Positions 314-62,524 of a DNA stretch of 64,000 bases are shown one piece after another. The DNA lies in assembly GCF_002113885.1 (NCBI RefSeq), contig NW_018403789.1, forward strand, positions 1,045,570 to 1,109,569, in the 5' to 3' direction. Below the pieces are notes generated by a model. It saw nothing but the letters and a program-made list of their open reading frames with translations, had not been told where the DNA came from and did not search any database. Within the stretch, counting starts at the first letter, position 1; the number at the start of each line of letters is the position of its first letter. The DNA is from Mizuhopecten yessoensis (lineage: Eukaryota). Position numbers and translations under genes: made by a program.

Positions 314-510
314 AAAATAGCGTGTCGATGATACAGATGTGGGCGATTGGATTAATATGTCGGGACTGATGTCAATATCACGTGGGCCGGAAACGGATTG
401 AAAAGCAATACTTTCGCCGGTGGGTTACGTTCCATGAAGACAAAATCACAAAACACTTAGGGCATATTTTATTACGATATCTGCATATAAACGTCAAATT
501 CTAACCTTAC

Positions 511-9159
<8,649 letters not shown>

Positions 9160-13105: not shown

Positions 13106-13319
13106 CACAGGGACCTGCTAATTTGTTACAGCTATATTTGGACCTAAACTAAAATGACATCCCCAATGATGATAATATACGAGAAAGGGCTCGTATATTA
13201 TCATCATTGGAGTGGCATTTTGATCGAAAATTTATCTAAACCCCCCAAACGTGTAAAATTTGTCTAAACACTTTAGTTTACGTTCAAATATAGATGTAAC
13301 AAATTTGCAGGCCCCTGTG
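13106..13319. mobile_element. Palindromic MITE with CACAGGG termini (family also at 28033-31460, about 31840-31992 and about 61440-61502)
   Basis: TIRs CACAGGGACCTGCTAATTTGTTACAGCTATATTTG / CAAATATAGATGTAACAAATTTGCAGGCCCCTGTG; internal hairpin CCAATGATGATAATATACGAG-AAAGGG-CTCGTATATTATCATCATTGG. Confidence 0.8.
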
Positions 13320-13339
13320 CTCACGACGTACGCCCGCTA

Positions 13340-14560
13340 CGTGCTGGTTTTTAGAAATGGTGGTATTTTAAGAAACAATGAAAATTGGACATATAACGGA
13401 TGTCCTTTGGAAATCGTAAATGAATTTAATTATCTAGGTATGTTGTTAAATTACAACGGCACTTTCAGAAAAACACAGCAAAAAATAGCAGATCAAGGAA
13501 GGAAAGCTTTATTTTCAGTTATGAATGTATGTCGTAATAATTATTTTAATATTGAAACCCAACTATCAGTATTTGATACATATGTAAACAGTATTTTGTG
13601 TTACGGTTCAGAAATATGGGGTTTTCATAAAGCCCCGGATGTTGAAAAAATACATATTATGTTTTGTAAAAAATTACTCGGTGTGCGTAAAAATACTTGT
13701 AATGCTATGGTCTATTTAGAGCTTGGTAGATATCCATTATCACTGCTGAGGAAATTCAGAATTTTTAAGTATTGGATAAAGATTATAAATACTGATAATT
13801 GCATTTTAAAATCATGTTATGAAGACATGTTAGTGCGTAACGACAAATGGGTAATTAATATCAAGAATGAATTATATAGAATAGGTCTAGGTTACATATG
13901 GCAAACAGATAACATTGATAATAGCTGTTTGATTATAATTAAAGAAAGACTTTTAGATATTTATAGACAAGATTGTATAGAACAAATTAGAACATCATCA
14001 AAAGGATTTTTTTATACATGTCTTAACAAAGAAGTTGGTATACAGGGTTATTTAAGAAAATCGTTTATGAAAGGTTACTTAAAAGAAATAACAAAAATTC
14101 GGCTTTCAGCCCATAATTTAAATGTAGAGAAAGGTCGTTATCAAAATATTCCGCGACTTTTAAGAATCTGTACCGCTTGTGATATAGATGATGTCGAAGA
14201 TGAATTTCATTTTATTCTTAAATGCCCCTGTTATTCTGATTTACGTGAGAAATTTTTAAAAAAGTACTATTGTAAAAAACCGAGCATGTTTAAATTAATT
14301 CAGTTATTTAACGGACAAAACACAAATGAATTAGCAAAATTGGCCAAATACATTAAAGCTGCAAATTCAAGAAGAGCTTTATTAACATAAGTAGTTATGC
14401 TCTCCGAGTGTTTTGTCTCGTCTGTGTATTTATTAGTATTTTCGATATTTGTCAATGTTATGAGAAAGTATATATATATATATATATATATCATGTATAT
14501 GTGTTACACTGATGAGTCGCAAGACTCAAAGTTAATAAAGAACTTGAACTTGAACTTGAA
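13340..14560 (+). mobile_element. 5'-truncated RTEX-like non-LTR retrotransposon (ORF2 C-terminal part, 3'UTR, (GAACTT)n tail)
   Basis: Open frame with FNYLG, YGSEIWG, ELGRYP, RLSAHNL and CxxC...EDEFHFILKC; AATAAA followed by GAACTTGAACTTGAACTTGAA. Confidence 0.88.
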
Positions 14561-14876
14561 TAAGTCCAACTGACAATTTGATATATTTTGGTCCTGGAGA
14601 TCTCAAACGTATTTAGGATCGATATCGATGATCAAATTAAAAGTGTGCGATACGGGTATACTTGCTCTTTACTAGTCTAGCTCCCTGTAAAAATATCTTT
14701 TACAACGTTTTGTGTTACTTATTTACAAGTGTTGGTAGCAAGTTTGTGAGAGCACAACTTTCCAAATTTATCGCATCCACTATTTTACAAATCCTCGGTA
14801 CACCAGGGGTTAAGCTCACTTACGCTCTATACACCCCTGGAATATGTCGTATCAAAATTGTAGGCACAAAGATAGC

Positions 14877-41696: not shown

Positions 41697-44600
41697 TTAG
41701 TGAGAATGTTGACACACATCACATGTGTCAGTGAGAATGTTGAGACACATCACATGTGTAAATGAGAATGATGACACACATCACATGTGTCAGTGAGAAT
41801 GTTGACAAACATCGGATGTGTAAGTGGGAATGTTGACACACATCACATGTGTAAGTGAGAATGTTGACACACATCAAATGTGTAAGTGAATATGATGACA
41901 CACATCACATGTGTTAATGAGAATGTTGACACACATAACATGTGTTAATGAGAATGTTGACACACATCACATGTGTTAATGAGAATGATGACAAACATCA
42001 CATGGGTCAATGAGAATGCTGACACAAATCACTTGTGTTATTGAGACAGTTGACATACACCACATGTGAGTCAGAAAGTGGACACACATCACATGGGTCA
42101 GTGATAATGTTGACACACATCACAAATGTAAAAGAGAATGTTGACCCACATCACATGTGTAAACGAGAATGTTGACACACATCACAAGTGTAAACGAGAG
42201 TGTTGACACACATCACAAGTGTAAACGAAAATGTTGACACACATCACAAGTGTAAGTGACAATGTTGACACATCACATGTGTAAACGAGATTGTTGACAT
42301 ACAACCCATGTGTAAGCGAGAATAATGACACACATCACAAGTGTAAACGAGAATGTTGACACACATCACAAGTGTAAACGATAATGTTGACACACATCAC
42401 AAATGTAAACGAAAATGTTGACACATATCACAAGTGTAAGTGACAATGTTGACAATATCATATGTGTAAACGAGATTGTTGACACATCCCATGTGTAAAC
42501 GAGATTGTTGACACATCCCATGTGTAAGCGAGAATAATGACACACATCAAAAGCGTTAACGAGAATGTTGACACACATCACATGTGTAAGTAAGAATGTT
42601 GACACATCATGGGTCAGTGAGAATGTTGACACATCATGGGTCAGTGAGAATGTTGACACATCACGTGTAAGTGAGAATGTTGACACATCACGTGTAAGTG
42701 GGAATAATGACACATCATAAATCAGTGAGAATGTTGACACATCATGTGTAAGTGAGAATGTTGACACACATCACATGTGTCAGTGAGAATGATGACATAC
42801 ATCGCATGTGTTAGTGAGAATGTCAACACACAAGACATGTGTCAGTGAAAATGTTGACACGCATCACATGTGTCAGTGAGAATGTTGACACATTACATGT
42901 GTAAGTGAGAATAATGACACACATCAAAAGCGTTAACGAGAATGTTGACACACATCAAATGTGTAAGTAAGAATGTTGACACATCATGGGTCAGCGAGAA
43001 TGTTGACACATCACGTGTCAGTGGGAATGTTGACACACATCACATGTGTAAGTAAGAATGTTGACACATCATGGGTCAGCGAGAATGTTGACACATCACG
43101 TGTAAGTGTTAATGTTGACAGATCATGAATCAATGAGAATGTTGACACATCATGTATACATCGCATGTGTTAGTGAGAATGTAAACACACAAGACATGTG
43201 TCAGTGAAAATGTTGACACGCATCATATGTGTCAGTGAGAATGTTGACACATCATGTGTACGTGAGAATGTTGACACACATCACATGGGTTAGTGAGAAT
43301 GTGACACACATCATATGTGTAAGTGGGAATGTGGATATACATCACATGTGTTAGTGAGAATGTGACACACATCATATGTGTAAGTGGGAATGTGGATATA
43401 GGATGTGTAAGTGGGAATGTTGACACACATCACATGTGTTAGTGAGAATGTTGAAACACATCACATGTGTCAGTGAGAACGATGACATACATCGCATGTG
43501 TTAGGGAGAATGTCAACACACAAGACATCTGTCAGTGAAAATGTTGACACGCATCATATGTGTCAGTGAGAATGTTGACAAACATCACATGTGCAAGTGA
43601 GAATAATGACACACATCAAAAGCGTTAACGACAATGTTGACACACATCACATGTGTTAGTGAGAATGTAACACACATCATATGTGTAAGTGGGAATGTGG
43701 ATATACATCACATGTGTTAGTGAGAATGTGACACACATCATATGTGTAAGTGGGAATGTGGATATACATCACATGTGTTAGTGAGAATGTTGACACACAT
43801 CACATGTGTAAGTGATTATGTTGACACACATCACAAGTGTAAACGAGAATGTTGACAAACATCACATGTGTAAACGAAAATGTACACAAACAACCCATGT
43901 GTAAGCGAGAGTCATGACACATCACAAGTGTAAACGAGAATGTTGACAAACATCACTAGTGTAAACGAAAATAATGACACACATCACATGTGTAAGTGAT
44001 TATGTTGACACACATCACAAGTGTAAACGAAAATATGGCACACATCACAAATGTAAACGAAAATGTTGACACACATCATATGTGTAAACGAGATTGTTGA
44101 CACATCCCATGTGTAAGCGAGAATAATGACACACATCAAAAGCGTTAACGAGAATGTGGACACACATCACATGGGTAAGTAAGAATGTTGACACATCATG
44201 GGTCAGTGAGATTGTTGACACATCACGTGTAAGTGAGAATGTTGACACATCACGTGTAAGTGGGAATAATGGCACATCATAAATCATTGAGAATGTTGAC
44301 ACATCATGTGTAAGTGAGAATGTTGACACACATCACATGTGTCAGTGAGAATGATGACATACATCGCATGTGTTAGTGAGAATGTCAACACACACCACAT
44401 GTGTCAATGAGAATGTTGACACACATCATATGTGTCAGTGAGAATGTTGACAAACATTACATGTGTAAGTGAGAATGTTGACACATCATGTGTCAGTGAG
44501 ATTGTTGACACATCACGTGTCAGTGGGAATGTTGACACATCACGTGTAATTTGGAATGTTGACAGATCATGAATCAATGAGAATGTTGACACATCATGTG

Positions 44601-44772
44601 TCAGTGAGAATGTTGACACACATCACATGTGTTAATGAAAATGTTGACACATCACATGTGTTGGTGAGAATATCAACACACACCACATGTGTCAGTGAGA
44701 ATGTTGAAACACATCACATGTGTAAGTGAGAATGTTGACACACCACATGTGTCAGTGAGAATCTTGACACAT
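41697..44772. repeat. About 3.1-kb satellite of 27-31-bp units (GTGAGAATGTTGACACACATCACATGTGT-A), roughly 100 copies
   Basis: Read directly; diagnostic variant blocks recur at about 42460-42900 and 44075-44470. Confidence 0.96.
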
Positions 44773-45774: not shown

Positions 45775-47765
45775 TTACATGTGCTGTGTTTCGCAGTACA
45801 GATAGATGGCCGCGTCCTTCAGAGCAGCCGGGGTGTAGTAATGTAACAGTCGATCCCTCCACACACCCCACGACTGTGCGTCGGTCAGCTTGGGGATGGG
45901 ACGGTTCAGGAGGGTGATGGGCGTGCCACTCTCGTAGTGGTCAGCCACCCACTGGACAGCGGCCTTGACTCCGTTATTGTCCACATCAAGAACGCAGTCG
46001 CAGGTGGCCTGGGAGGGAATATCGGTCTGGATGTCTTGCCAAGTTGTCGTGTAGATCTGAAGGATAGACAATGTAATACAGTAATTCAAAGATGACTTGT
46101 GTTGTTTGTTTTCTGTGAATACATGTACGTTAGAAATCAATGAAAAACATTTTCTGCAAAATGTACGGGATAACTGATTTTCGTTATATTTATTGGTGTG
46201 TTGAGTTTCAAATTTAACGCTTAAAAGATGTCAACAGAATACTTTCATTATGTGTTAAGATTTGGATAAGTTTTTCTTAACTTTCTGAAAAAGGTTTCTT
46301 CAACAATTATATTTGTTTTCTTGATTTGTTTTTAAACCTAGTCTACAGGTTGTCATCCTCGATAGTCAAGGAGTATTTTCACTTTCGCTCTCTGCACCCC
46401 TGGGATATGTCATAGCGAAATTAAAGGTACGTGTATACTGTAGCTATTTGATTGGTCTTAGTTGAAAAACCCCTGACCAATCGCTAGGCTGATACTTGTC
46501 CTTTGAAGATTACAGAGGAGCGACTCCGGATTTCAAAGCCATTCAATTTTACCGTTACACGACCACGATATTCCTTTGGTTTTCATCAAAGGATCAAACT
46601 CGTCTCATTGTCTCATCAATAAGACGACGCACACTGAGAGCCTTTATTTTTTCTATGTCATATTCCAGGGGTGCAGGTAGCAAAAGATGCGGCGTTGTCT
46701 CCTTAATTATCATGAGAGGGGTCACGAGGGGTCACTGCCGGCTAGGTTTTGACAAAACAACAAGTTTTTCACAAAACACACTAATATACGTCACTGTCTC
46801 TTACCTTGTGCCACAAGTCCCACATGTGAAACACGTGGGCCACACGTTCAATGGGTGACCAGTTTGGACCAAGTCCGTCATTGGAATGACCGATCTGAGA
46901 CAGGATGCCGTCAATTATGTTCATGGTCATGGTGGAGAACCCACTTCCGGTTTCGGTATGTGGGGCGTATGGAAGAACCTTTTGGCTCTGGTTGAGATCC
47001 TGATTTACAGTGGGGACTCTATTGTTAGCGGTGGCCCGGGGGTTGAAGAGTTTCAGAGCGTCCACTGTCATGGAATGGACAGCATGGGCGATTGTCTCGT
47101 TGTATTTGGTGGTGAGGCCAGCCCGAGCGAGGACATCTTCGCAGTGCCTACCAGGGACAGAAAAAATGACATGTTGGATGAGTGAAGTTAAACTACTGAT
47201 AAATTGCATATGGATTCAACAGACTACCAGTTTCCTAAATTATCGCAGTATTTTATATTAAATTATTCATTTTCCCGACGGGGATTGCTCAAGGCATTTG
47301 GAGTTGTTATTCCTGAATGCTACTTACATGGTACCACGAATTGAAACAGACGCTTGACAATGATATTCTTGAACGAACGCTACATAATACACACCGATTG
47401 AAGCAGACGTTTGAAGCTACTTATGACCAATGTAAGCCGTTGTTTACGAGCGCGACATACCGAATTCGGATCAGACGTTTAGCATTGGAATTTTTGAACG
47501 CTAAATTGTTATTCCTTTCTATCATCAAATTCCCGATTTCTGCAATCGCGTCTTGTATTTTCGTTATAAAAAGTAGCGAAACTACGACGAATAGTGAGTA
47601 ATATTGCTTTAAAACTGTTCATTATTTTTATATATTTGATAATATTTTTTTCACTTTGGTGTATAGATGAATTTGTTATAAAAACAGTATACATGTACAA
47701 ACATACCTGTTTGGCGCTCCCAAGGCTAGGGCCACACAAACAATGACAGTAAATAGACGTAGCAT
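45775..47765 (-). CDS. Secreted protein of unknown function, 227 aa; exons 47765-47707, 47147-46805 and 46056-45775
   Basis: Exon 1 encodes signal peptide MLRLFTVIVCVALALGAPN. Introns AG|GTATGT...TAG|G (phase 2) and AAG|GTAAGA...TTCAG|ATC (phase 0) give a 684-nt open CDS; TATAAAA lies upstream. Confidence 0.85.
46354..46680. mobile_element. Truncated copy of the CATCCTCGATA MITE in intron 2 of the secreted-protein gene
   Basis: CATCCTCGATA...CACTTTCGCTCTCTGCACCCCTGG at the left and CCAGGGGTGCAG at the right; similar to 60392-60819. Confidence 0.65.
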
Positions 47766-47870: not shown

Positions 47871-48024
47871 GTATACATGTACCAATATAGGCTGCTAAAG
47901 TAGAACCTGTGACGTTGAACTTGGCTTTGTTTTCGTACGATACTAGATCAGTAGTAGGGGTCAAAGTTAGCTCGGACAAGGTGCGGGTGCTGCTAAGGTT
48001 ACGTTACTTGTTTCTTATAATGCA

Positions 48025-48330
48025 ATGATAAGTCGTTATAACGAGATAACGAAATGGTAAGTTATCATAATGAGAACGTAAATCGTAATAAAGAGATGGT
48101 ATGTCGTTATAACAATATGGTAAATCGTTATAACGAGGTGGTAAGTCGTTATAACGAGATTGTAGGTTATTCTCACGAAAAGTATGTCGTTTAAAAAAAA
48201 TTGTAAGTCGTTTCAACGAGATTGTCAATCGTTATAACGAGGTGCTTAGTCTTTATAACGAAAAGTAAGTCGTTATAACGAAAGGGAAAGTCGTTGTAAC
48301 GAAATATCAAATTGTCATTTGTTATAACGG
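48025..48330. repeat. About 21-bp degenerate tandem repeat with palindromic CGTTATAACG core
   Basis: AAGTCGTTATAACGAG recurs about 12 times. Confidence 0.8.
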
Positions 48331-49279
48331 GGAACTTAGTATATTGAAAATTGGAATTGTAGTTATATTTTGTAGCCCTTCAATTACAATAATAGTGATT
48401 GCATCTACACCCACTAGCGTCACTGGGCTACATGTACACTATCATGGTGTATGTGGGGTACAATAGAAGATGTTACATGTACAATGCGCTGAGAACGAAT
48501 ATATCTGCTATATCCCACTACATCATCGTATGAGGCGACTAATGTTAAGTCTGCTTCAATACATCCGTGGATATATTTCTGTAATCTGCTGAAAAGACTT
48601 TGAAAATACAAAACAAATCAGTTAGTTTAGTTTAAACATATGTTATTGCAATATACTTACAAAAAGGATTTGGCACGAGTTATTGCAACTTATAAACGCC
48701 CTTTCCATAATGCTTTACAACATATAAATATAATGCAAATCAGTGTTATGCCATTTACAATGGTTTGGATAGTATTAGTCTGCATTTTATTTAACATGAA
48801 TATTTCAATATCTCCCTCTAATTAGTAAACCTACCTGTGACACTTTTTCCTAGCTAAACCTTCTTAGTCGAATAACTTAATGAGCTACAGTTCTGACAAA
48901 TCCAGTAGCGATAAGGCCTTTAATCGGACCATACACTAAACTAGGTTACATAAATATATCTGTATGTTTATGGTCATAATAGTTGGGGAACGGGAAAATG
49001 TCTCTGTTCTACAAGTGACCATTGTGATACGCGGATACCACAGTAAGATATTGTTTTCCCTTATAACACGTTTTTTTTTAAAATATATGAAAAATAGGCA
49101 AAATGAACGAGGTCATAGTCAAAATGCATAAAAACGGGAAATGGCACATTCCGCAAAGACCGCTAGCGCTTTAATGTTTATTTGGCATTTCCCGTTTGCA
49201 TTCAATGGTTATGAATGTCAAGTCAGTTTACCGGAAGAGTGACTGAGAAACCTTCAAATGAACACCATTTACATGTTGA

Positions 49280-49640
49280 GGATATTGTTTGGAGTCCTGA
49301 CAACGGTTAGGGTCATACGAGGACAGGTGCCTAGGGCGACACCACCGTAAACAGAAAGTAGAAGATATTTATAAGACAAGAAAAGCAAAAAAAAAATTAA
49401 AAAAAAATCAAGTGTTGCAACGCGGGAGCATATCCGTTCTGGTCTCTGTAGAAGACACTGTAGACAACGCTCGATTCTGAAGGAGACCCCACCTTTGTGA
49501 CAAACACATGTAGTGGGATACATGATTGTTTCTTCAATGTCTCTTAAACAGAAGAACAGGGAAGAAACCATCCCCGAGACAGCATTTGTGGGGGGACCGC
49601 TATACGATTACGCAGTGGGCTGCAGCAGGCCTATCTTTCT
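49280..49640 (-). mobile_element. SINE-like dispersed repeat, related to 59320-60300
   Basis: Shares GGTCATACGAGGAC-GGTGCCTAGGG, AAACAGAAAGTAGA, AGTGTTGCAA, GGAAGAAA and CAGCAGG-CTAT with 60059-60300. Confidence 0.55.
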
Positions 49641-49783
49641 CTGAACCTGCACAAGTTTGTCGGGACATCGTATTTGTGATTTGAATATTGATTACCGTGT
49701 GAATGTTTGATCTACTCTTAAGGGTAGAAAGGTCAAACGATACCTAGATTAATTTCTAGTGTTGTCTTTCTGTATGTTACTGT

Positions 49784-49971
49784 ACTAACATATTCCCGCG
49801 GTTCGGAGAATAGCGGGAATTATTTGTCTTATCGGTTCGATACGGATATTGCCGAGTGTGCTTAGCCAATCGGATTGGCTCTGTATGTAGCACGTACGAT
49901 ACGTGTCAGCGTATCGGGTACGTGGGTCATTTTCTAGCCGCCTTTTCAGCGCGACGGTCATATTAAATTTT
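49784..49971 (+). repeat. Split direct repeat A1 (pairs with A2 53892-54077)
   Basis: ACTAACATATTCCCGCGGTTCGGAG...CGGTCATATTAAATTTT, nearly identical to A2. Confidence 0.92.
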
Positions 49972-49982
49972 TCTTATGAATC

Positions 49983-52826
49983 ATGGATGAACTTACGAAA
50001 GCAGATATTTCACAGCAGGTAGGAGCGGCAGTTTCAGCTTCCAGAAACGAACTTCTAACTCAATTAGACACGTTGATGACTTCCAAGTTTGGGCGTTTCG
50101 AAACCCAAATTGCAGACACTCAGTAAACCATTACGGAGACTCAGTTGACAAAAATCCAGCAGGGTATAATGTGCATGGACAGTTATAAATTCAATAAGAA
50201 AAGCTGTGAGGAGCAGCACAAATTTAACAACAAAGTTGTGACAAAGTTGCATGAAGCTCGGCAGTCAAACCAGGCCGGCGACGCGCGGGACACGAACGAA
50301 AAGATTACCGAAGGTATTAATTTAATGGCATACAGACAAAAACTCATAAAATTGGCAGATTCGTCTGACGCGGGTTGGAAGACGGTAGAGGAGTACGTCA
50401 CAAACCCTATCGCTTCGGATTCCGACGATGAAAAAAGAATGGACAGGACCAGGAGCAGGGCGAATAGGAAAGCTAAAACACAGAAGCAGAAACCAAGGAG
50501 ATTCCAGAAGGATCGTTTTCATCATTATGATGAGGGCGCATTGGACACGCGTGTCACGACAACAGGCGGGCGGGCGGTTATGGACAGACCACCGATGTTA
50601 AAACCTGGGACTTGTTTCTCTTGTGGTAACACAGGTCATTGGAGGAGGGAATGTCCGACAGTGAGGGGTATCCCCGCGACAGCAGGAAGGGCTAATGAAA
50701 AGATAAGTACACTTTTATTGTTTGATAAAAATGTAGATGTGGCTGATGAGTCAATGATAGTAAAGTCCGTAGTAGAGGCACATTCGGTAGTAAACACCGA
50801 TAGTACAGCACGTGTTTGTGAAACACGCCCACTCGGTCGGTTGAGAGACAGTGTTGATGTATGGGTAAACGCAGGTACGTGCGAGGCTGTGTTACAGGTC
50901 TTTCGTCAAGGATATAATTTGCCGTTCAAATCTCTGCCATTAGCTAGAGTTTTGTTCAACAATAGGCCCTCAAAAGATAATCCAAGTTTTGTGGATAGTG
51001 AGATAACCAATCTCATTCGTATTGGTTCTGTCACAGAAGTTTCGGAACAGCCTGTAGTGGTTAATCCACTGACAGTGGCATACAGCAAGAAAGGTAAGCC
51101 CCTCGTTTTAGATTGTAGGCACATAAATCCGTGTTAACATCAGTTTATATTTAAATACGAGGACGCGTCTGTAGCCAGGGACATGTTCGAGGAAGGTGAC
51201 CATGTATTTACATTTAATTTAAAATCGGCTTACCACCATATAGAGATATGGCTGGAGCACAGAAGGTACCTAGGATTTTCTTGGATATTAGAAGGTAGGT
51301 TACGGTATTTTGTGTTCAGTGTGCAACCGTTTGGGATCGCTACGGCAGGGTATATTTTCACAACGGTCACACGAGAGTGTGTGAAATACGGGCGATCGAA
51401 AGGTCACCACGTGGTAATGTACCTCGACGACGGTATAGGAGGACACAACCAGGCTGGCAAAGCAGCGGAAGTAAGTAAGGATGTGAGGCATAGTTTAACG
51501 CAGTTTGTCTTCATCAGCAGACGAAAAGTGTAGTTGGGAGCCATCACAAAATGCCACACGGCTAGGCTACACGTGGTTTTTCGAGGAGGGCGTGGTCAGG
51601 ATCACCATGGAAAGAATGACTAGGTTATTGACATGCCTAGACAAGACCTTGACGTTGATTGGCAGAGGTGAGGAATTGTTCGAAGCCAGATGGGTGGCAG
51701 GTATTGTTGGTGAGATCATCTCAATGCAAGGTGTGTTTGGACGGCAGGTAAGGTTGAAAACTCGGTGTTTGTACAACACTGTTTTGACAAAGGCAAGCTG
51801 GAATGCGCCGGTATTTATGGGCTCGGAGGCTATAGACATTGGAGGTCACATGCAGAGGGCATGAACTGCAAGGGCAGTGGGTTGAAGGAAAACGGTTGCG
51901 TCACTGGGACAAATACCGTTATGGTGTGTACGGATGCCTCCGACACGGGCTATGGTGGCTATGTATATACCGAGAACACTCTGGCTGAGAGTGAGTGTAA
52001 CGGAAAGCCTTTGGTAGGCATTCCCGTTGACGCTGATATGCAGTATGATCGAGCAGATCGACAATGTGTGTTGGGTTCATGGGAGGCCTCGGAGGCAAAG
52101 CGTAGCTCTTCTTGGAGAGAGTTAGAGTGGGCTAAACGGGTACTGCTATCGGTAAAGAGTATAGTAAAGGGGGTGAAGGTAAAGCTAGTAATGGATAGCA
52201 AAAATGCATGTAGTATTGTTCATACAGGGAGCAGAAAACAAGATTTGCAGGATATAGCATTAGCGATAAACGAGTGTTGCGGGACGGAGCACGAGCTGGT
52301 GCAATTTCAATGGGTCCCTAGGGAGTTGAATACGATCGCAGATTTTCTTAGTAGATGTTCGGACTGCGATGACTGGGGGATTCAGTCCTGGGTTTTTGAA
52401 ATATGTGAGGCGCGTTGGGTCCACATACAGTGGATAGATTCGCGTGTGATTACAACGCAAAATGCTTGCGTTTTAATTCGCGATGGTGGTGCAGCGGCAC
52501 AGAATCAGTGGACGCTTTTTCGCAGGTGGATGGTTCCCCCTCCTCGTTTGGGCTGTACAGTTTTGGGAAAGATAAGGCGGGATTGTGCCGCGGGCACTTT
52601 GGTGATTCCTGAATGGGCATCCGCACCCTACTGGCCAGAATTAATCGCGGAGAGATCAAGCTTAACAAGTTCCGTGGTCGACTGGATTTCATTCGGTCAC
52701 GACGAGGTGACAATGGCTGGTAGGGGTAATAACGGGATATTAAGTCATAAGACTTTAAATTCAGAATGTTGGCTTTCAGGTTCATGTGAGATTTATGAAT
52801 ACATTTTCCTTTTTCTGCAGGTCTGA
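49983..52826 (+). pseudogene. YR-retrotransposon gag-pol (Gag with CCHC knuckle, RT, RNase H, methyltransferase-like domain), disrupted
   Basis: ATG 49983; stops at 50124 and 51135; frameshifts near 51500, 51840 and 52420-52520. Motifs RQKLIKLAD, CFSCGNTGHWRREC, LKSAYHH, PFG, YLDD, TDAS, WRELE, N-IADFLSR, DRFA and GTLVIPEW. Confidence 0.88.
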
Positions 52827-52891
52827 GGTCAAAACAGCACGTTGGAGAGGCGCTCAATGAGGCCGGAATAGAGGAGGGGAGTTACCTTCAT

Positions 52892-53743
52892 ATGCTTGGC
52901 AGTAGTATGACGGCCAGACTTCCGGCATGCAAGGCGGATAGTACCAACACGAAGTATTTTGCTTTGTATAGGAGATGGGAGAGTTTCATACCCGATCAAG
53001 GTTTTCAGGCTTTGCCGGCCGACTCAATTCACATTGCATTATTTTTGACGCATTTATTAGACAACGGTGCTTCAACTGCGGTGACGGAATCGGCCATGTA
53101 CGCCATCAAATGGGCGCACGATATCACCGCATTGTCGGATCCTACCAATAACGTCTTTGTCAGAAATATTGTGGAATCAGCAAGACGAACTGTTAAAGCT
53201 CACGTTAAGAAGATTTTGTTGAGTTTCGCCGCGTTTTTAAGATTTAATGAATTCGTTTCTTTGCTTTGTTCGGATATTTCGATTAGGGACGATCATTTTT
53301 CGATTAAAATTAGAAAGGGTAAGACTGATCAGTATCGTCAAGGGGACGAAGTTGTCGTTAGTAAGGGCACTACTTCAGCATGCCCCTTGTCTATGCTCCT
53401 TCGTTACGATGATCTTGCAAAGATCGATTTCGAGTCTGAGGATTATTTGTTTAAGCAGGTCGTGCGATCGAAAACGCAGTGCGGATTTATTTTTAAGAGC
53501 AAACATTTGAGTTACACGGTGGTTCGAGAGTCTGTTTTAAAGCGCCTAAGGTTAGTAGCCGTGGATATTGATATCGGGCTACATTCTTTGCGTGCAGGAG
53601 GGGTTTCAGCCGCATCTGGGCAAGGTTTGAGCGATAGGTGTCTGATGAGGCATGGCAGGTGGCGCTCACAGTTGAGCAAGGACGGCTATGTCAAGGATAG
53701 TTTAGACAATCGGTTACAAGTCAGCCAAAAGATCGGTATTTAG
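52892..53743 (+). CDS. Tyrosine recombinase of the YR retrotransposon (appears internally deleted between AHVKK and ILLSF)
   Basis: Catalytic set FLRFNE (R), KTDQ (K), HSLRAGG (HxxR), HGRW and KDGY (Y). Confidence 0.88.
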   Translation: MLGSSMTARLPACKADSTNTKYFALYRRWESFIPDQGFQALPADSIHIALFLTHLLDNGASTAVTESAMYAIKWAHDITALSDPTNNVFVRNIVESARRTVKAHVKKILLSFAAFLRFNEFVSLLCSDISIRDDHFSIKIRKGKTDQYRQGDEVVVSKGTTSACPLSMLLRYDDLAKIDFESEDYLFKQVVRSKTQCGFIFKSKHLSYTVVRESVLKRLRLVAVDIDIGLHSLRAGGVSAASGQGLSDRCLMRHGRWRSQLSKDGYVKDSLDNRLQVSQKIGI

Positions 53744-53823
53744 GCGTTAATCGTAAGCGGAGTGTACATTTTATACGGCTAGATAAATTTGGTTAACTTT
53801 TCCTTCTTTGTTATTTTCTATAG

Positions 53824-54077
53824 CGCACGGCGGGCTAGGCGGGCAAACTGATATGTTTGTGTCGTGTTGTTTATGACGTAGTAGAGATTGGACTAACATA
53901 TTCCCGCGGTTCGGAGAATAACGGGAATTATTTGTCTTATCGGTTCGATACGGATATTGCCGAGTGTGCTTAGCCTATCGGATTGGCTCTGTATGTAGCA
54001 CGTGCGATACGTGACAGCGTATCGGGTACGTGGGTCATTTTCTAGCTGCCTTTCAAGCGACGGTCATATTAAATTTT
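53824..54077 (+). repeat. Split direct repeats B1 (53824-53894) and A2 (53892-54077)
   Basis: B1 matches B2 over 71 bp with one mismatch; A2 matches A1. Confidence 0.92.
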
Positions 54078-54611
54078 AATAATATAGCTTTTGGCAGGGT
54101 CAGCGGATTAGCGTTACGTGGATATTGTAGAGTAAACCCAGCAACTTGAAGTGTCGAGCCTTGAAGGGCTGGTGCACCTCCTGACTTGTCTGGTTTACCA
54201 GTTATTTTCAGGTTGGTTGGCTCACTCGGCTTCCCATTCTCTACTATATCGCACTAGTGTTTTATCTTGTGTATCATAAGGGGAAAGATACACGTGAGAA
54301 AGATAAAAGTACGGATTGATATGTATGTATAATAATAGCATTAGAATTGCATATGTAAAAGTTTTTTGTGTATGAGCGTTTGTCAAGATTTTCAAGATTT
54401 CAAGATTTTTTATTTCACTCAGACACACATAATATGTGTAACAAGAGGTCATGTATATATAACATAGTTTGAGTGCATGACAGGCAAACATTCTATACCA
54501 TAGCATAGTACATAAAAATATATATACGTGTAGTTACATACAAATAATTCAGTGTTCAACTTATATAAAATGTCACTAGCAAACAAAAAAAAAACTTAAA
54601 GAATAGAGACA

Positions 54612-57600
54612 CTAAAGTACTTTTGTTAATTTTTGAACAAATAAGCTTACACTTTTTAACAATTTCATATTAAAGATTGTGAACATTCCTTTCATTTTAT
54701 GTTGGTTTGGACTTGTATAAAAATAGGCCGGAATATGTTTTTCCCTTATTTTGACTAAAGTGTCGTTATTACAAGTATATAAGTAATGATACTCGTCCCC
54801 AATACCAGTATTACAAAGTGGGCATATTCTGTCCTGTCTTTGAATTCCCACCCATCTTCCTGTTTCTACTGGAAGCTTAATATTTGAAGTTCTAAATTTG
54901 CAGATAATTTTCCTATCTTTTGCGTTTAATCTGATCAAATAGTCTTCTAAACCAAAGCGATATTTAAATGTAGAGTATAATCGTCCTCTGGATGAGGTGT
55001 CAATTTTATTAAACCAGGATTGAATAAACTGATCGTGTAATTTATGTATAATTGCAGCTTTTAAATAAGTAATATCGGGCAGACAGGTTTTTTGATGGAT
55101 CCAAACATAGCTTAGACCTACGCTATCCAGGATATGTTTAACATAGTTCAACCATTTAAACTCGATTTGTCCATTTTCATGTAATGAGTACATCAATTTG
55201 TACATTCGACTAGACAACTTATTTTCACTCGAGGTAAGTGTATACCAAAATTTAATCATTCTTAATTTGACATCAACCTCAATAGGGTATCTGCCCGTTT
55301 CTCCATATACCATAAAATTACAAGTATTTCTGCGTAGACCAAGAATTCGTTTACAGAATTGGAGGTGTATTTTTTCAAGTATACTAACATCCTCATGGCC
55401 CCATATTTCTGATGAGTATAGCAAAATTGGAGCAACTAGCGAGTCAAACAATTTGAATTGTAAATCAATGGGTAACGAAACATTTCTTATTTTCTTATAT
55501 ACGGCATATAGTGCTTTTTGGGCCTGTTCCGCTAATTGCTTTTTTGCCACTACAAACCTCCCATTATAGTAAAATAGAACACCTAAGTATGGAAAAGAAT
55601 CTTGAATGTCTAGCTCATTATCCTGTAATAGAAATCGATATCTGTTAGTATTCTTTCGTTTAGAAAAGATGACAATTTTTGTCTTCTGTGTGTTTACCGT
55701 TAGTTTCCAATTCTCACAATAATCCTGAAATTTATTTAGCATTGATTGTAGACCATCTGCTGTCTCTGACATTAACACTGTATCGTCAGCATATAAAATA
55801 ACAAAAAGCTTTACGTACATACCAATATGATCATGACAAAGTTCATCAATCTTTAGTAAACAATCGACATTTTTTTCCAATAAATAGTCTTCTAAATCAT
55901 TTAAAAATATTGCAAATAAAAAAGGCGAGCAATTTTCACCTTGTTTTAGTCCGACATTTGAAGTGAACATTTCTGACATTTCATTCCCATTTCTCACACA
56001 AGATTTCGTATCAGAATACATGTTAATTAAAACTTTAAATATTTTACCAGTTATGTTACATTTGAGTAGTTTTTGCCACAAGCCTATTCGCCACACCGAA
56101 TCGAAGGCTTTTCTAAAGTCAACGAATGCACAATATAGTTTTCTACCGGAGGATAAATATAACGTTGTCAAAACGTGTAAAATAAAAATGTTGTCTAGTG
56201 TTGAGTGACCTTTTCTGAAACCTGCTTGTGCGTTACTTATGAGTTCAATTTCATCAGATAGTTTGTATAATCTTGCATTTAAAATCGACGTAAAAACTTT
56301 TCCCAAGCACGAGACCAACGTAATAGCCCTGTAATTATCCAACTTTTTGCGATCACCTTTGTTCTTATAGATTGGATTGATTATTCCTGTACTCCAACTT
56401 TCCGGTATTATACCAGTGTCCAATATTATATTAAACATATCAATATATACAGGTAACATTGTGTCAACCGTACTCTTTATGTATTCATTGACTATATTAT
56501 CAATACCACAAGCTTTGTTATTATTCAAATGTTTTATAGCATGAACAATCTCATCAGCAGTAATTCTATCATTCAAAATATTATCATACAAACATTCATT
56601 TACAGGTGGAATTTCAAATTCCTCCTCTGTTTCATTATTAAGATTCAATTTTTTAAAATAGTCATGTAGTTCGTCTATTGTCAGATCAACTTTACGACGA
56701 CCTTTAGGCTTATCAATTCTATTCAAAATATCCCAGAAGGCTTTTGGTTTAAATTTGGAAGCTTTCCTCATTTCATGTTCAATATTTTCTTGGAACTTTT
56801 TATAGCTACTATTAATGAGTTTTCTGTATTCTCTACCTTTTTTGTTCATTCTTTTCCGATTTCTTTGGCTTTTAAAGTTTTTGTAATCTCTCTTAGATTC
56901 ATGAAATTCTTTTCTTTTCTTAACACATTCACGGGTAAACCAGGGTTTATCCTCTTTGGTGAATACTTTTTTCCCATTGTGCACTTTTTTTGTTCCAAAA
57001 ACCTCTCTTGCTGAGTTCAAAAACAATTCAGCAATGTTATTTACTAAATCGTTTACATCGTCTCGCGATATAATCTCAATTGGAGACTCGTGTATATTTT
57101 TGATTTTTGAATTAATTTCGTGTAATTTGCCCCTCTCGTCCATATGTACTGTAGTTACGAAATCAGTTTGTTTTTCGTTTACCCATTTACCGATTCTCTC
57201 AGTAAGATGAACCGGTTCCTCGTTTTTGTATACGGATTCAGAATATTGAATGGTAAATTTTAGTCTACAGTGCACGTCTGAAATCAAAGGATCAAAGTCT
57301 AAAACTTCAAAGTGACATAAGAGAGGAAAAACATTGGACGATACAATCAAATAATCAACTACGCTCACATATTTACAAGTATTCTTACCAATGAGTCTAT
57401 CATTGCCGACTCTACCGTTTGCAATGTATAAATTATTATTTTTACAAAAATCAAGCAGATTACGACCAAATGTATTTGGTCTTGCTAGGTCTTGACTCGT
57501 TCTTTGAAGCGGTACCCCAAAACGGGTTAACTCTTCGTAATCATATAAATACTCATGCAAATCGTCATTTTCATGTATATTCAATGTTTCAATTAAATGT

Positions 57601-58112
57601 TCATCTGGAACGATATAATCGTCACAAGTATTAGTTCTGGCATTAAAATCTCCGATAAGTATAACTTTTTTGTCATTTTTAATTAAATTAATCATTTCGC
57701 CCTGAATCTCTAAAAATGCTTCATTAGAAGCATACCTGGACGTTTCGGGGGGTACATACACACAGCCCACTAATAGAGTGGATATGTTATTACTTGCACG
57801 TACCTCTACCCACTGGACGAACTCGGATGGAGTTTTTGGAAATAGAAGTAATGATTTATACTTTTCTTTAAATATTGTAATTATTCCGCCAGATTTTTTT
57901 TTTGTGTTAGGTCTGTTTTTAGCTACATAATCATAGCCGTTTGGCATTTTAAGAATGTCCAGATCGTCAGTTTTAGTTTCAGCTAATATAACGACGTCGT
58001 GAGACTTCACAATATCAGAGAATTCTGGTAACAGGATTTTAGACCTGACACCACAAATGTTAACAAACGTGAATTTTAAGTCCTGTACCTCCTGACCTCT
58101 TGTGACGTGATC
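54612..58112 (-). CDS. LINE ORF2: APE endonuclease, reverse transcriptase and C-terminal Cys/His motif (uninterrupted; no AUG before the first APE motifs)
   Basis: VNICG, AETK, YVPP, GDFNAR, VVDY, SDVH, NYRAITL, DFRKAFD, GLKQG, YADD, YLG, CPLC...DEYH...C motifs. Confidence 0.92.
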   Translation of the reverse strand, partial: DHVTRGQEVQDLKFTFVNICGVRSKILLPEFSDIVKSHDVVILAETKTDDLDILKMPNGYDYVAKNRPNTKKKSGGIITIFKEKYKSLLLFPKTPSEFVQWVEVRASNNISTLLVGCVYVPPETSRYASNEAFLEIQGEMINLIKNDKKVILIGDFNARTNTCDDYIVPDEHLIETLNIHENDDLHEYLYDYEELTRFGVPLQRTSQDLARPNTFGRNLLDFCKNNNLYIANGRVGNDRLIGKNTCKYVSVVDYLIVSSNVFPLLCHFEVLDFDPLISDVHCRLKFTIQYSESVYKNEEPVHLTERIGKWVNEKQTDFVTTVHMDERGKLHEINSKIKNIHESPIEIISRDDVNDLVNNIAELFLNSAREVFGTKKVHNGKKVFTKEDKPWFTRECVKKRKEFHESKRDYKNFKSQRNRKRMNKKGREYRKLINSSYKKFQENIEHEMRKASKFKPKAFWDILNRIDKPKGRRKVDLTIDELHDYFKKLNLNNETEEEFEIPPVNECLYDNILNDRITADEIVHAIKHLNNNKACGIDNIVNEYIKSTVDTMLPVYIDMFNIILDTGIIPESWSTGIINPIYKNKGDRKKLDNYRAITLVSCLGKVFTSILNARLYKLSDEIELISNAQAGFRKGHSTLDNIFILHVLTTLYLSSGRKLYCAFVDFRKAFDSVWRIGLWQKLLKCNITGKIFKVLINMYSDTKSCVRNGNEMSEMFTSNVGLKQGENCSPFLFAIFLNDLEDYLLEKNVDCLLKIDELCHDHIGMYVKLFVILYADDTVLMSETADGLQSMLNKFQDYCENWKLTVNTQKTKIVIFSKRKNTNRYRFLLQDNELDIQDSFPYLGVLFYYNGRFVVAKKQLAEQAQKALYAVYKKIRNVSLPIDLQFKLFDSLVAPILLYSSEIWGHEDVSILEKIHLQFCKRILGLRRNTCNFMVYGETGRYPIEVDVKLRMIKFWYTLTSSENKLSSRMYKLMYSLHENGQIEFKWLNYVKHILDSVGLSYVWIHQKTCLPDITYLKAAIIHKLHDQFIQSWFNKIDTSSRGRLYSTFKYRFGLEDYLIRLNAKDRKIICKFRTSNIKLPVETGRWVGIQRQDRICPLCNTGIGDEYHYLYTCNNDTLVKIREKHIPAYFYTSPNQHKMKGMFTIFNMKLLKSVSLFVQKLTKVL

Positions 58113-58472
58113 CTAGTGGTGCTCATTGTTCCGTCCCGGGGGTAGGGCTCCGTTGTGCGGATTCCTTGGGGGTGGGGCTCTATAGGGTTCCCCATTGACG
58201 TATAACGTGTCGTAACTGAGGGTAGCCCTATTGCCACGGCGCTTCTGTTCCCTCATTATTGGGTACAGAACGGCTCGTCTTTGGGCAATTTCAGGAGGGT
58301 ATTGCCGCTGAACACTGAACTCCGGTTTATCTCGAAGCTTGATAGGAGCTTCTTTGAGGACTCGTTCCAAGTCATTGAAGTTGGCAAATTTGGCAATTAT
58401 GCTACGAGGCTTGCCGTCACGTCGCTGTCTCAGGCGGTGTACGTTGTCGAATGATATGCCGTCGGGATTGTA
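58113..58472 (-). CDS. LINE ORF1 C-terminal part (L1-ORF1-like RRM/CTD)
   Basis: FDNVHRL...PRSIIAKF...QYPPEI..RR..L...LSYDTLYVNGEPY pattern. Confidence 0.8.
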   Translation of the reverse strand, partial: YNPDGISFDNVHRLRQRRDGKPRSIIAKFANFNDLERVLKEAPIKLRDKPEFSVQRQYPPEIAQRRAVLYPIMREQKRRGNRATLSYDTLYVNGEPYRAPPPRNPHNGALPPGRNNEHH

Positions 58473-58522
58473 TGTCAATGTATGTTATTTTTGAAACACA
58501 TCAATTAAATGCTTGACCATAA

Positions 58523-58593
58523 CGCACGGCGGGCTAGGCGGGCAAACTGATATGTTTGTGTCGTGTTGTTTATGACGTAGTAGATATTGGACT
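58523..58593 (+). repeat. Split direct repeat B2 (right end of the YR element)
   Basis: CGCACGGCGGGCTAGGCGGG...GATATTGGACT, matching B1. Confidence 0.92.
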
Positions 58594-58760
58594 GTTATAT
58601 CACTGTGTCTATAGAAAGGTCAAACGATACCTAGATTAATTACTAGCGTTGCATTGTCTTTCTGTATGTTACTGTACTGTTATATCACGGTGTCTATAGA
58701 AAGGTCAAACGATACCTAGATTAATTCCTAGCGTTGTAGAAGTATGTTACTGTACTGTTA
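58594..58760. repeat. About 85-bp host tandem repeat that is the YR element's target; the first part of the interrupted unit is at 49725-49786
   Basis: TAGAAAGGTCAAACGATACCTAGATTAATT...GTATGTTACTGTACT|GTTATATCAC at 49725, 58611 and 58696. Confidence 0.85.
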
Positions 58761-58906
58761 AGTTTTTATTTACATGCTATATAGAAAATGTGTATATATT
58801 ATATGTATATTGTTTGTACGGAATAGGAAGGTTTATCGCAGATAATTGCTATCCCAATAAACAGCGGCGTTAATGACCGACTAAGTATAGGTGATACCGT
58901 GAGTAC

Positions 58907-59088
58907 ACGCGTGTTTATACCAATGCCACTAATACGGAGCGTTTCACGGACAACCAGGAATACCTTCACGTGTTTATACAAATGCCACTAATACGGAGCG
59001 TTTCTGGGACCACCAGGAATACCTTCACGTGTTTATACCAATGCCACTAATACGGAGCGTTTCATGGACCACCAGGAATACCTTCACG
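58907..59088. repeat. About 59-bp tandem repeat, 3 copies
   Basis: AATGCCACTAATACGGAGCGTTTC...ACCAGGAATACCTTCACG occurs three times. Confidence 0.85.
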
Positions 59089-59361
59089 ATGTTGTACCGC
59101 ATGTTTGTATTTTTATGTCATCATTGGATTACCACAAGTTATGCACGAGCTGTTCCGGAACCGGATGTTTGCTCCACACTTTTATTTTACTGTACATTGA
59201 TAAAACTGGAACTTCAGAAAATACAAGATCGAGCGATCAGTTTCATTTTGAAAGACGACTTGTTTGCCTGGCTAACATTGTCAGTTAAAAGCGTGCTGTA
59301 TCTGTAACACCTTATTTGCTTATTTTGTTTTGTTTGTTGTTTAATGTCCTCGCAACAAACA

Positions 59362-60090
59362 AGGTCATACGAGAAAGTATGCCCAGGGAGGTACTACAGC
59401 CATGGTCATACGAGGACGGGTGCCCAGGGAGGTACAACAGCCATGGTCATACGAGGACGGATGCCTTGGGAGGTACAACAGCCATGGTCATACGAGAACG
59501 GGTGTCTAGGGAGGCACAACAGCCATGGTAATACGAGGACGGGTGTCTAGGGAGGCACAACAGCCATGAACATACGAGGAGGGGGGCCTAGGGAGGTACA
59601 ACAGCCATGGTCATACGAGGACGGGTGCCCAGGGAGGTACAACAGCCATGGTCATACGAGGACGGGTGTCTAGGGAGGCACACCAGCCATGGTCATACGA
59701 GGACGGGTGTCTAGGGAGGCACAACAGCCATGGTCATATGAGGACGGGAGCCTAGGGAGGAACAACAGCCATGGTCATACGAGGACGGGTGTCTAGGGAG
59801 GCACAACAGCCATGGTCATACGAGGACGGGGGCCTAGGGAGGTACACCAGCCATGGTCATACGAGGACGGGTGCATAGGGAGGTACAACAGCCATGGTCA
59901 TACGAGAAGGGGGGTTAGGGAGGTACAACAGCCATGGTCATACGAGGACGGGGGCCTAAGGAGGCACAACAGCCATGGGCATATCGGGACGGGTGCCTAG
60001 GGAGGCACAGCAACCATGGTCACATGTGTACGGGTGCCTAGGGACGCACAACAGCCATGGTCATACGAGGACGGGTGCCTAGGGAGGCAC
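59362..60090. repeat. 41-bp GC-rich minisatellite (CAGCCATGGTCATACGAGGACGGGTGCCTAGGGAGGTACAA)n, about 17-18 copies, embedded in a SINE-like element (59320-60300)
   Basis: Unit spacing of 41 bp (59397 to 59438). Confidence 0.93.
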
Positions 60091-60391
60091 CGCCTAAAAC
60101 AGAAAGTAGATAGAAAAGAAGGAAGACAGGTAAATAGGAACCGAAAAATATTTCGAGTGTTGCAATAGGGGCAGCAGAACAATGTTGGTCTCTACCATGT
60201 CCTCTTAGTTGAAGACAAGGAAGAAAACCCCGATTCCTCAGGGAACCTCTCATTAGTCGCCTCCTACGATACACATGCCGCGGGACACAGCAGGTCTATT
60301 CTTGGTTTCTTCAATTTCCCCTTAACGGAAGGCAAGGAAGAAAATCGATGCAAAGGAAGCGACGAACAGAACTAAAAAATCACGTGATATA

Positions 60392-60819
60392 CATCCTCGA
60401 TATCCAGGGGTTGCATTCACTTTCGCTCTTTGCACCCCTGGAATATGTCTAGGAAAAATCGAAGGCTCAGTGTGCAGTACCTTGTGGACCATCCTCGATA
60501 TCCAGCGGTTACGCTCACTTACGCTCCCTAGACCCCTGGAATAGTTGCGCCACCTTGTGTATGAGACGAGTAGACTAGTTTAATCCTTTGATGTACATCA
60601 AAAGAATATCGCGGTCGCGTAACGGTAAAACTTACTTGCTCTGAAGTCGGGTGTCGCTCCTCTGTAATTTTCAAAGGACAAGTGTCAGCCTAGTGATTGG
60701 TCAGGATTTTTTCCTGACACCAATCAAATAGCTACACCGCGAGCCTTCAAATTTCCTATGACATATTCTAGGGGTGTAGAGAGAGCGAAAATGAGCGTAA
60801 ACCCTGGATATCGAGGATG
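60392..60819. mobile_element. MITE with long TIRs and a 9-bp TSD (Mutator-like)
   Basis: TIRs CATCCTCGATATCCAGGG / CCCTGGATATCGAGGATG; flanks CGTGATATA and CGTGATGTA (8/9 match); second left-TIR copy at about 60490. Confidence 0.8.
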
Positions 60820-62524
60820 CGTGATGTAGTGATAATTTGTGAAAAATCAAATGTAAAATGTTGTACAAATGTATTACTTCATGACGTCATCTAGATCTTT
60901 TGACAATGTCATGTTGCGATTTTGTACTACGAGACAGATGTAAACGTGACAGATGAGTCCCGAACGGTGTTCCATAGATTTACAAATGACTTGTTTAAAT
61001 TCTGTGAAATAAACACTTGACTTTATCCTGACACATACGTATTGACGAGGTTATACTGTTCGCTTTGTCTACAAGTTAATGTACATTTGTAGCGTGCGTG
61101 ATGATCGTTCTAACACGATTCTATGTCGGGGAGGTCACCCTGTGATACGCTCGGTAATTATTGATGATAATAAAACTGTTATAATCATCTGTCGCGACCG
61201 TGTTTTTTATTTCAATGATTTTAATGTATTTCTCTATGGGTTAGAGTTAAAGTCAATACAAAATTTTGTAAATATTTTGTTGGTTATTTGTCATAAAGAC
61301 CGATCGCTTCGATCATTATTTGTCATGATATATAAAGTAATATGGTAAATCAACATAACACAGTTTTTCATTTTTTGATAGTTTTCAATTGTGTTCTATA
61401 TTTTGCTCATAACGTTGTAAATATGTAAAAAAAACCATGTAAAATTGCTCTAAACATCTTAGTTTAGGTCCAAATATAGCTGTAACAAATCATCAGGTCC
61501 CTTTGATTTTGGATGATACTGCAAGTATTAGGGCTAATATTAAAATGTTCGATCAGGTTTCAACAAGGGAGATTACTCGTTTAACCCAAGAACGTCATTA
61601 TGCTGCCAAATGTCAAAAGATCTCTTTCTTTCCCTGCCTAAGTCACAATTAAATATACCATTCCGTGTTATACAAAAATGCAATTATATCACTTGGTCTT
61701 TAATTAACACATTAAAAATTTAAAGTGTAACCGAAAACTAAGAGTGAAGTGGACAGGGGAATAATTAAGCAGATAAGGGGACGGGGCTTGAATTAAGATC
61801 GGGGCTAGAGACAGGAGTGAACAGTCGGCAATTGGAATAATACTTCTTAATTAAAGAAAAATTAAACAATTTTTGTTGTACTTGTACATACTTTTTAAAC
61901 TTTATTGAGAGATTGACTGACAGTTCATAAAACATGAAATATACTGATAATAATTCTGTACATGGAAGTAGTACTAGCGCATGCCTACCTTTGTGGTAAA
62001 ACTCCCACATGTACAATTGGTCGTTTAAGACGAAGTAGCGTATCTATCAATACATCTTCAAACTCCATTTAATATTTATAAACAAGATACCGGAGTTTGT
62101 TTACTTGTAGAATTCCTCCGATCTCACTTGCAGATAAGATTTTTTTTAAGGAAAACAAACGCAAAAATTGGCAAGGAAGAACAATTTAGGATGACAAAAA
62201 GATCTAATTTCAAAAGAAATTATTATCGTTGAAAATCAGTTACACACACTTCTGTTGAATGTGTCCCCGGGGTGGAAGGTTATCACGTGCCAGTAGACAG
62301 CACGTGAGCCGTGTCCGTCCAACCAATCGTATTTCAATACACATACCGGAGTTCATTATTTCACACTTAGCGGTGCCAACGTATTTGACAATGTACATAA
62401 ATGCATGATTTTTATATACAGACTATGCAAACTTGCCTAGGTGTACAAGGGGACAGGTATACATACCTGTACAAAGTTTACCTGTGTGTCTAAGGTAAAC
62501 CTGTTGTTACCTGCATATACACAG

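Follow-up and report, generated by a model that had tools for sequence, protein, structure and literature searches.

A stretch of 64,000 nucleotides from Mizuhopecten yessoensis (contig NW_018403789.1, positions 1,045,570 to 1,109,569 of the forward strand; hereafter the window) was found to contain, at 49725..58760, a tyrosine recombinase (YR) retrotransposon set within a short tandem repeat of the host. The parts of the element follow the order A1, a region encoding gag, reverse transcriptase (RT), RNase H (RH) and a methyltransferase (MT), the YR, B1, A2, a spacer and B2, with A and B being split direct repeats (Table 1). Between A2 and B2 lies a long interspersed nuclear element (LINE) of ~4.1 kb, which is separate from the YR element and makes up nearly half of the interval, the YR element amounting to ~4.7 kb without it. 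A sequence-only reading made beforehand had treated the whole interval as the record of a YR element, which holds for the YR element itself; the ~4.1 kb of unrelated LINE had gone unmentioned.

The same triplet, ACT, is found at four junctions, and the 12-mers at these were read exactly as had been described earlier: tgtACT-aacata at the left end (49781-49792), tggACT-aacata at the internal B1-A2 junction (53889-53900), tggACT-gttata at the right end (58588-58599) and tgtACT-gttata at the empty site in the adjacent repeat unit (58673-58684). With 20 bases compared on each side of ACT, the left end matched the empty site at 20/20 positions on the left side and the internal junction at 20/20 on the right side, and the right end matched the internal junction at 19/20 on the left side and the empty site at 19/20 on the right side. 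The unrelated sides of the junctions agreed at only 5-8 of 20 positions. Between donor and empty site the identical run extends 0 bases to the left and 3 bases to the right of the start of ACT, and is therefore exactly ACT. The reciprocal pattern put forward by the sequence-only reading was thus confirmed by exact reading and by the flank comparison. Its view that a short tandem repeat was already in place and that the element recombined into it over a shared ACT was likewise upheld, donor and target having exactly ACT in common, as was the absence of a target duplication beyond the core at the junctions, the empty site being deduced from the repeat unit next to it. Its description of the locus as a complete record was, however, overstated: all four junctions are present, but the form of the donor (circular or linear, single- or double-stranded) and the bond cut within ACT are not readable from the sequence, and the B2 junction is present at the right end although the left end of B2 may have been clipped by the LINE.

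Seen from the flanks alone, with one ACT in the empty site against two in the filled site, the locus resembles an ordinary 3-bp target-site duplication (TSD) left by a staggered cut, or a one-sided ligation, and the ACT of the internal junction would then be coincidental. The chance that a given triplet is ACT is ~0.016 per site from the base composition, and a staggered-cut duplication would place the core triplet at the internal B1|A2 junction as well only ~1.6% of the time. A related element (L004, see below) repeats the pattern with a different core. The element also encodes a YR, and no match to a DDE integrase was detected in any of the 7 open reading frame (ORF) pieces scanned. An ordinary TSD is considered hardly credible here.

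The host array consists of 2.8 units, with unit 1 being split by the element and measuring 80 bp when its halves are joined, unit 2 being intact at 85 bp and unit 3 being partial at 64 bp. The 85-bp repeat described earlier is thus correct for unit 2 but not for the other two. No other occurrence of the unit was found in the window or in L001-L006, six related loci which belong to other families, nor was a further copy of the element, of A or of B found in the window. It could be supposed that the 80-85-bp repeat was made by the element or travels with it, as a post-insertion duplication or as 3' cargo, in which case the empty site would not be independent. The confinement of the unit to this locus within the window and the shortness of the array would suit this, and L005 is an instance of a kilobase-scale duplication arising around an element of this kind. 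However, the right flank picks up the repeat at the very point where it broke off on the left, and unit 1 is finished there before unit 2 starts; the 18 bases at 58594-58611 are without a copy on the left and would not be contained in a plain duplication of the left flank. The absence of the unit from L001-L006 also speaks against it, though with the same restriction as to family, and a later duplication of the empty allele would still report the target. An origin of the repeat with the element is therefore regarded as very unlikely.

In the split-repeat model, the transcript runs from within A1 to within B2, and a B|A donor junction is restored during reverse transcription by way of the internal B1-A2 copy. 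The element of the window would have been transcribed between these points and its donor junction rebuilt in the same manner. A Cre-like YR would then have exchanged strands between the ACT of the donor junction and that of the host. The product is visible at the locus as host-ACT-A1 on the left and B2-ACT-host on the right with nothing else gained or lost, and with the target in unit 1 the empty site is preserved in unit 2. Insertion of the LINE between A2 and B2 and decay of the ORFs would have come later, an order suggested by the nesting. The probability that this is an old, non-functional PAT-like copy which was integrated by YR exchange at a shared ACT into unit 1 of the local tandem repeat is put at roughly 0.85. 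Passages in two publications (PMC3266345; PMC7192593) describe a model in which a 3-bp junction sequence recombines with an identical genomic sequence with no TSD, the element ends being flanked by a triplet of which one copy is its own and one is from the target. Similar donor and target logic is described, in the relevant part of PMC9977147, for active Cryptons. The outcome at the locus is what the published model predicts, and it confirms that existing model with a dead copy.

A number of points weigh against this interpretation. The triplet model is apparently stated for DIRS1-like elements in the passages concerned (PMC3266345; PMC7192593). The family of the window element is represented by one copy only, and what serves as the empty site is a paralogous unit of the repeat, not a true empty allele. 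L005 fits poorly, as its shared 4-mer is present twice at the left junction and its B2 end is lost. With regard to a circular intermediate, a section of PMC7192593 reports that DIRS-1 complementary DNA (cDNA) is mostly linear and single-stranded and that inverse polymerase chain reaction (PCR) for the circle junction failed. It should also be noted that the donor junction 11-mer is present in the chromosome at the B1-A2 junction, and inverse PCR for this 11-mer would therefore amplify the chromosomal junction.

A site preference of the form G-N-ACT-N3-TA, which had been proposed on the strength of donor and target sharing it, was rejected, as its register is off by one and it matches neither donor nor target. 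The in-register similarity between the two is TG-N-ACT-N3-ATAT, covering 6/10 neighbouring positions, which was reached or exceeded by 59 of 1,581 host ACT sites in a comparison window picked after looking; the similarity over 20 positions (9/20) was reached by 85 of the 1,581. It appears to be a weak, after-the-fact hint from one insertion. Judging from two elements, identity over 2-3 bases from the crossover start, together with a weak flanking preference, is probably all that target choice requires.

The frame encoding gag and pol is broken: it is interrupted by stop codons at 50124 and 51135, the frame changes near both 51516 and 51834, and a stretch near 52420-52525 is shifted in frame. 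All four intact long homologues (P0121-P0124), which carry gag, RT, RH and MT in one protein of 946-1,061 amino acids and not in separate gag and pol ORFs, align through 49983-52760 by tblastn with 35-61% identity. Pieces of the window matched Pfam zf-CCHC in gag (E 1.1e-6) and RVT_1 (E 2e-5), and RT_RNaseH was above cut-off in one of the four homologues, whose region aligns to the window. A Pfam Dam match was present in all four homologues below the curated cut-off (E 5e-5 to 0.01), with a PHROG methyltransferase match in one of them (E 5e-7). The window sequence aligns with the homologues through this MT-like region after RH, and three MT pieces of the window submitted alone gave no PHROG match.

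The YR ORF is open and retains the catalytic set R148, K175, H262, R265, H285 and Y297 (R-K-H-R-H-Y), with an in-frame internal loss near 53215 of ~30 codons which are present in relatives. Among 2,708 candidates, 587 YR homologues were found at E<=1e-10. The YR has relatives in bivalves and echinoderms; those named, with identities of up to 49%, include Pecten, Mytilus, Ylistrum, Pinctada, Crassostrea, Saccostrea, Strongylocentrotus, Diadema and Glandiceps. On the sequence evidence the host would be a marine invertebrate, probably a mollusc. The closest solved relatives of the YR are Cre and Tre (E about 1e-14). A1 and A2 differ at 6 of 186 positions plus 2 gaps and B1 and B2 at 2 of 75, and the copy is therefore not fresh. 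The A2-B2 spacer, of which 305 bp is left here, is ~390-400 bp in relatives (400 bp in L004, 393 bp in L005), and the shared length of B is 75 bp in the window element, ~150 bp in L004 and ~90 bp in L005. An Rfam scan of 48000-61500 gave 0 matches.

On these sequence features, the element fits a decayed, non-functional, PAT-like YR retrotransposon. Sorting of PAT-like, Ngaro and DIRS1-like elements followed criteria given in passages of PMC3266345, PMC4157794, PMC6681497, PMC9210276 and PMC3783388. The PAT-like features found were split direct repeats in the order A1...B1-A2...B2, a YR with its catalytic set downstream of pol on the same strand, RT and RH, a CCHC zinc knuckle in gag, a Dam-like MT (by way of the homologues) and a short core only. 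The fit to PAT follows from the split direct repeats, the MT-like domain, the CCHC gag and the same-strand YR, while Ngaro is excluded because an MT-like region is present and DIRS1-like elements because the termini are direct repeats. The same arrangement of A1-ORFs-B1-A2-B2, together with the CCHC gag, RT/RH, MT-like domain, same-strand YR and lack of a TSD, is seen in the Pat1-like, echinoderm form such as SpPat1; the window copy differs in being decayed and in carrying a nested LINE. The echinoderm form probably has its internal repeats downstream of the YR. PAT-like elements have been reported from the mollusc Lottia and from Nematostella, according to passages in PMC4157794 and PMC3266345. 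One passage of PMC4157794 cautions that structural features are homoplastic, so that structure alone can mislead on family; the assignment made here is by structure and domains, and the RT tree covers this element, five loci and four homologues.

Comparison with other systems gave partial likenesses. Ngaro-like elements have the same split-repeat order with internal repeats after the YR (parts of PMC4157794 and PMC8547959) but are without an MT domain, whereas the window element has an MT-like region. DIRS1-like elements have the same RT/RH/MT/YR content and a triplet core common to junction and target (passages in PMC3266345 and PMC7192593); they differ in having inverted terminal repeats, an ICR (internal complementary region) and mostly NTT ends, against direct repeats and the core ACT in the window element. 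No inverted repeat of at least 20 nt joining the element ends was found, the termini being direct repeats. Crypton YR DNA transposons likewise leave a short donor/target identity as direct repeats, CACCG or CAYCG (part of PMC9977147), but have no RT and no split repeats, have repeats of 4-6 bp and undergo excision.

Table 1. Features of the YR element, the nested LINE and the host tandem repeat, in window positions
Feature	Position	Strand	Basis or remark
Left part of host unit 1, as far as the crossover core	49725..49783	+	90% identical to 58612-58678, 87% to 58697-58756
ACT core, left junction host|A1	49784..49786	+	Junction comparison
Split direct repeat A1	49784..49971	+	180/186 aligned bases identical to A2, 2 gaps
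Hairpin-forming inverted repeat at start of A1	49792..49820		51-nt fold, -9.2 kcal/mol; one mismatch in A2
Broken gag(CCHC)-RT-RH-MT-like frame	49983..52760	+	Pfam, tblastn of homologues, three-frame view of MT region
YR ORF, open	52799..53743	+	Homologues, alignment, catalytic residues
Split direct repeat B1	53820..53894	+	73/75 identical to B2; extent common with B2, may natively start further left
ACT core, internal B1|A2 junction, copy of donor junction	53892..53894	+	Junction comparison
Split direct repeat A2	53892..54077	+	180/186 aligned bases identical to A1, 2 gaps
Unique A2-B2 spacer, 305 bp left	54078..54382	+	Single copy in window; probable part of the YR element
Nested 5'-truncated endonuclease-RT LINE	54383..58518	-	Pfam RVT_1 E 4e-36, Exo_endo_phos E 1e-7
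Split direct repeat B2, possibly LINE-clipped at left end	58519..58593	+	73/75 identical to B1
ACT core, right junction B2|host	58591..58593	+	Junction comparison
Right part of host unit 1, continuing the split unit	58594..58611	+	17/18 bases identical to same part of unit 2
Intact host unit 2, uninterrupted target copy, ACT at 58676-58678	58612..58696	+	Repeat comparison
Partial host unit 3, own ACT at 58754-58756	58697..58760	+	Repeat comparison

Relatives were sought in one scan of genome contigs, in which 61 pattern matches were resolved into the six loci L001-L006. L001-L005 carry pol and YR, and L006, with a YR only and no pol match, was left out of all junction tests. In the RT tree, the window element, L001 and the four homologues were split from L002-L005 with support of 100/99. 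The split-repeat element of L004 is complete and lies within a satellite; its RT is 40% identical to that of the window element, and its junctions follow the reciprocal pattern again, over a core of the 2 bases GT. Within the satellite, GT follows the same upstream 6-mer in 84 of the 92 sites listed (102 counted). Donor and target of L005 share a 4-mer, B2 being cut. L003 has 7 bases common to its left flank and internal junction and no right end, and L001 and L002 have no usable left junction. From these sequences ACT is seen to be family-specific and not general, with a short identity from the crossover start apparent in both complete cases. The core start follows G in the window element, L001, L002, L004 and L005, a simpler register than a 6-bp staggered overlap resolved to either strand in the manner of Tn916, which was dropped because it needed a single register, arbitrarily chosen, for two clades that lie far apart. 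In a six-way alignment of the junction DNA the two clades were wrongly aligned, and it was set aside. A tblastn search of plasmids with a homologue returned 826 records, all below 60% identity (best ~30%), with no useful junctions. Both complete four-junction cases, the window element and L004, sit in tandem repeats, which is not evidence of a preference because repeats are what makes the empty site visible.

The contigs of L001-L005, whose YR retrotransposons are of animal type, are labelled as bacterial metagenome-assembled genomes (Sedimenticola, Sansalvadorimonas, Poribacteria and Stappiaceae), and the protein P0071 bears the label Ca. Thiodiazotropha. The contig holding L004 has a length of 2.57 Mb, and satellites or other repeats surround L004 and L005. 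Based on the repeats and on eukaryote-type genes, L001-L005 are probably host-animal DNA in bacterial assemblies. The whole L002 contig (1-9421) is palindromic, 1-4565 against 9421-4853 at 99.9%, starting ~43 nt into repeat A and turning just after A2, and may be a library or assembly artefact or else fold-back cDNA. L005 is bracketed by a 2.4-kb direct duplication (95%; 3415-5838 and 11820-14258) which cuts B2 after ~15 bases. In the satellite ~30 bp to the left of the L004 element, an insert of ~580 bp (~5962-6545) was observed with apparent terminal inverted repeats, as judged by eye.

The inverted repeat at the start of A1 gave a fold that was equalled by 0/300 shuffles on the plus strand and 1/300 on the minus strand, the value for A2 being 11/300, and 12 of 425 windows of the element (itself included) fold as well. 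Repeat A also starts with an inverted repeat in L001, L002, L004 and L005. A further palindrome within A1 (49862-49880), with one base differing in A2, has as its left arm the donor junction 11-mer in reverse complement, short by one base, and several further hairpins occur within A1. A stem crossing the junction was rejected for the window element, being not significant in four tests (375/800 controls, 3,942/4,789 and 16/200 shuffles), and only the hairpin internal to A is significant. In the relatives, the last bases of B pair with A from positions 46-47 onward, at 6/6 positions in L002, L004 and L005 and 7/9 in L001; pairing of 6/6 was found for 5/3,139 (L002), 13/7,001 (L004) and 17/6,997 (L005) of the 6-mers of each locus, with the offsets picked after looking. 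Folding of the whole junction gave z values of -5.6 for L001, -6.1 for L002 and -6.0 for L004 (0/200 shuffles each), -2.1 for L005 and -1.4 for the window element, L003 being outside this fold test. L001 has three nested stems on one centre.

A B|A hairpin can exist only where B meets A, and the ICR has been proposed as a splint in DIRS1-like elements. These folds may be taken to mean that the donor was a folded single strand, as with integron attC sites, rather than a double-stranded circle, which would give the same four junctions by another mechanism. The B|A hairpin would hold the cDNA ends and give a locally duplex site, one strand pair would be exchanged at the 2-3 matching bases, and replication would finish the process. 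This agrees with the long hairpins that span the junction region of L001, L002 and L004, and the B end lowers the fold by 12.5 kcal/mol in L002 and 9.0 kcal/mol in L004 (0/800 control 14-mers on the plus strand) and by 5.0 kcal/mol in L005 (19/800). The hairpin was, however, not seen in the window element or in L003 (799/799 on the plus strand), and a looser 60-nt search was not significant for L004 (727/4,190) or L005 (560/4,188). Six of 6 base pairs, 2 of them with two-sided changes, are maintained across L002, L004 and L005, but this covariation comes from only 3 sequences and was reached by 60/500 shuffles. In favour of a folded donor, the natural host|A1 junctions do not have this pairing. 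It should be noted that the L001 junction was placed by similarity only (4/500 shuffles) and that L002 is the palindromic contig. Precedents are the single-stranded cDNA of DIRS-1 and the folded attC site, as described in parts of PMC7192593 and PMC3458562 respectively. L001, L002 and L004 resemble attC in showing an imperfect hairpin with a mismatched centre around the crossover; the likeness is limited, as the hairpin is not significant in the window copy, Cre, which recombines double strands, is the closest relative of the YR, and the likeness is one of shape. The fold could also act in the RNA or in template switching instead. A folded single-stranded donor is thus judged unlikely.

With considerable doubt, it can be suggested that the PAT-like B|A junction folds onto a segment ~45 nt inside A, which may splint single-stranded cDNA ends, serve as an attC-like YR substrate, or both. 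This reading of the fold rests on three of five relatives and one weak case, and the family of the window element keeps only the inner hairpin. No description of a B|A hairpin in PAT or Ngaro elements was found in the literature searched, the primary Goodwin, Poulter and Butler papers and the kangaroo paper, which may carry such remarks as well as four-junction alignments, lying outside that search.

The nested LINE has an open ORF2 at 54612-58112 (1,166 codons stop to stop, endonuclease and RT), a remnant of ORF1 at 58113-58484 with a homologue from Patella (56%), and a tail with a short tandem repeat at ~54383-54408. Its 5' end lies between ~58460 and 58518, the sole ORF1 homologue aligning only to ~58460. 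No convincing target duplication was found for the LINE, only scattered 5-6-mers, and the sequences preceding B1 and the LINE showed no similarity to each other. A 136-bp fragment at 13642-13775 is 69% identical to the LINE ORF2 on the opposite strand. A 41-bp tandem array (17.8 copies) with its flank at 59363-60193 has a degenerate second copy (73%) at 49300-49447, just left of the YR element, and probably represents a non-autonomous element that carries repeats. A short dispersed element whose arms are inverted, resembling a miniature inverted-repeat transposable element, is present in several copies of 77-85% identity (60392-60819, 46354-46686 and 14778-14865). The window also has 20 tandem-repeat rows, the largest at 41699-44771 (31 bp, ~103 copies), and an 874-base assembly gap at 5181-6054.

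Loci at which donor, target and both product junctions are readable together are clean illustrations of the integration model, and in the window element and L004 the core is seen to vary between families, with 3 bases in the one and 2 in the other. The specificity of the YR is described in a passage of PMC7192593 as not yet tested experimentally. If true, the fold of the B|A junction would account for an identity of 2-3 bases being enough. The hairpin would then be a testable link between the single-stranded cDNA of DIRS-1 and the recombination step, and would matter more than the window copy itself.

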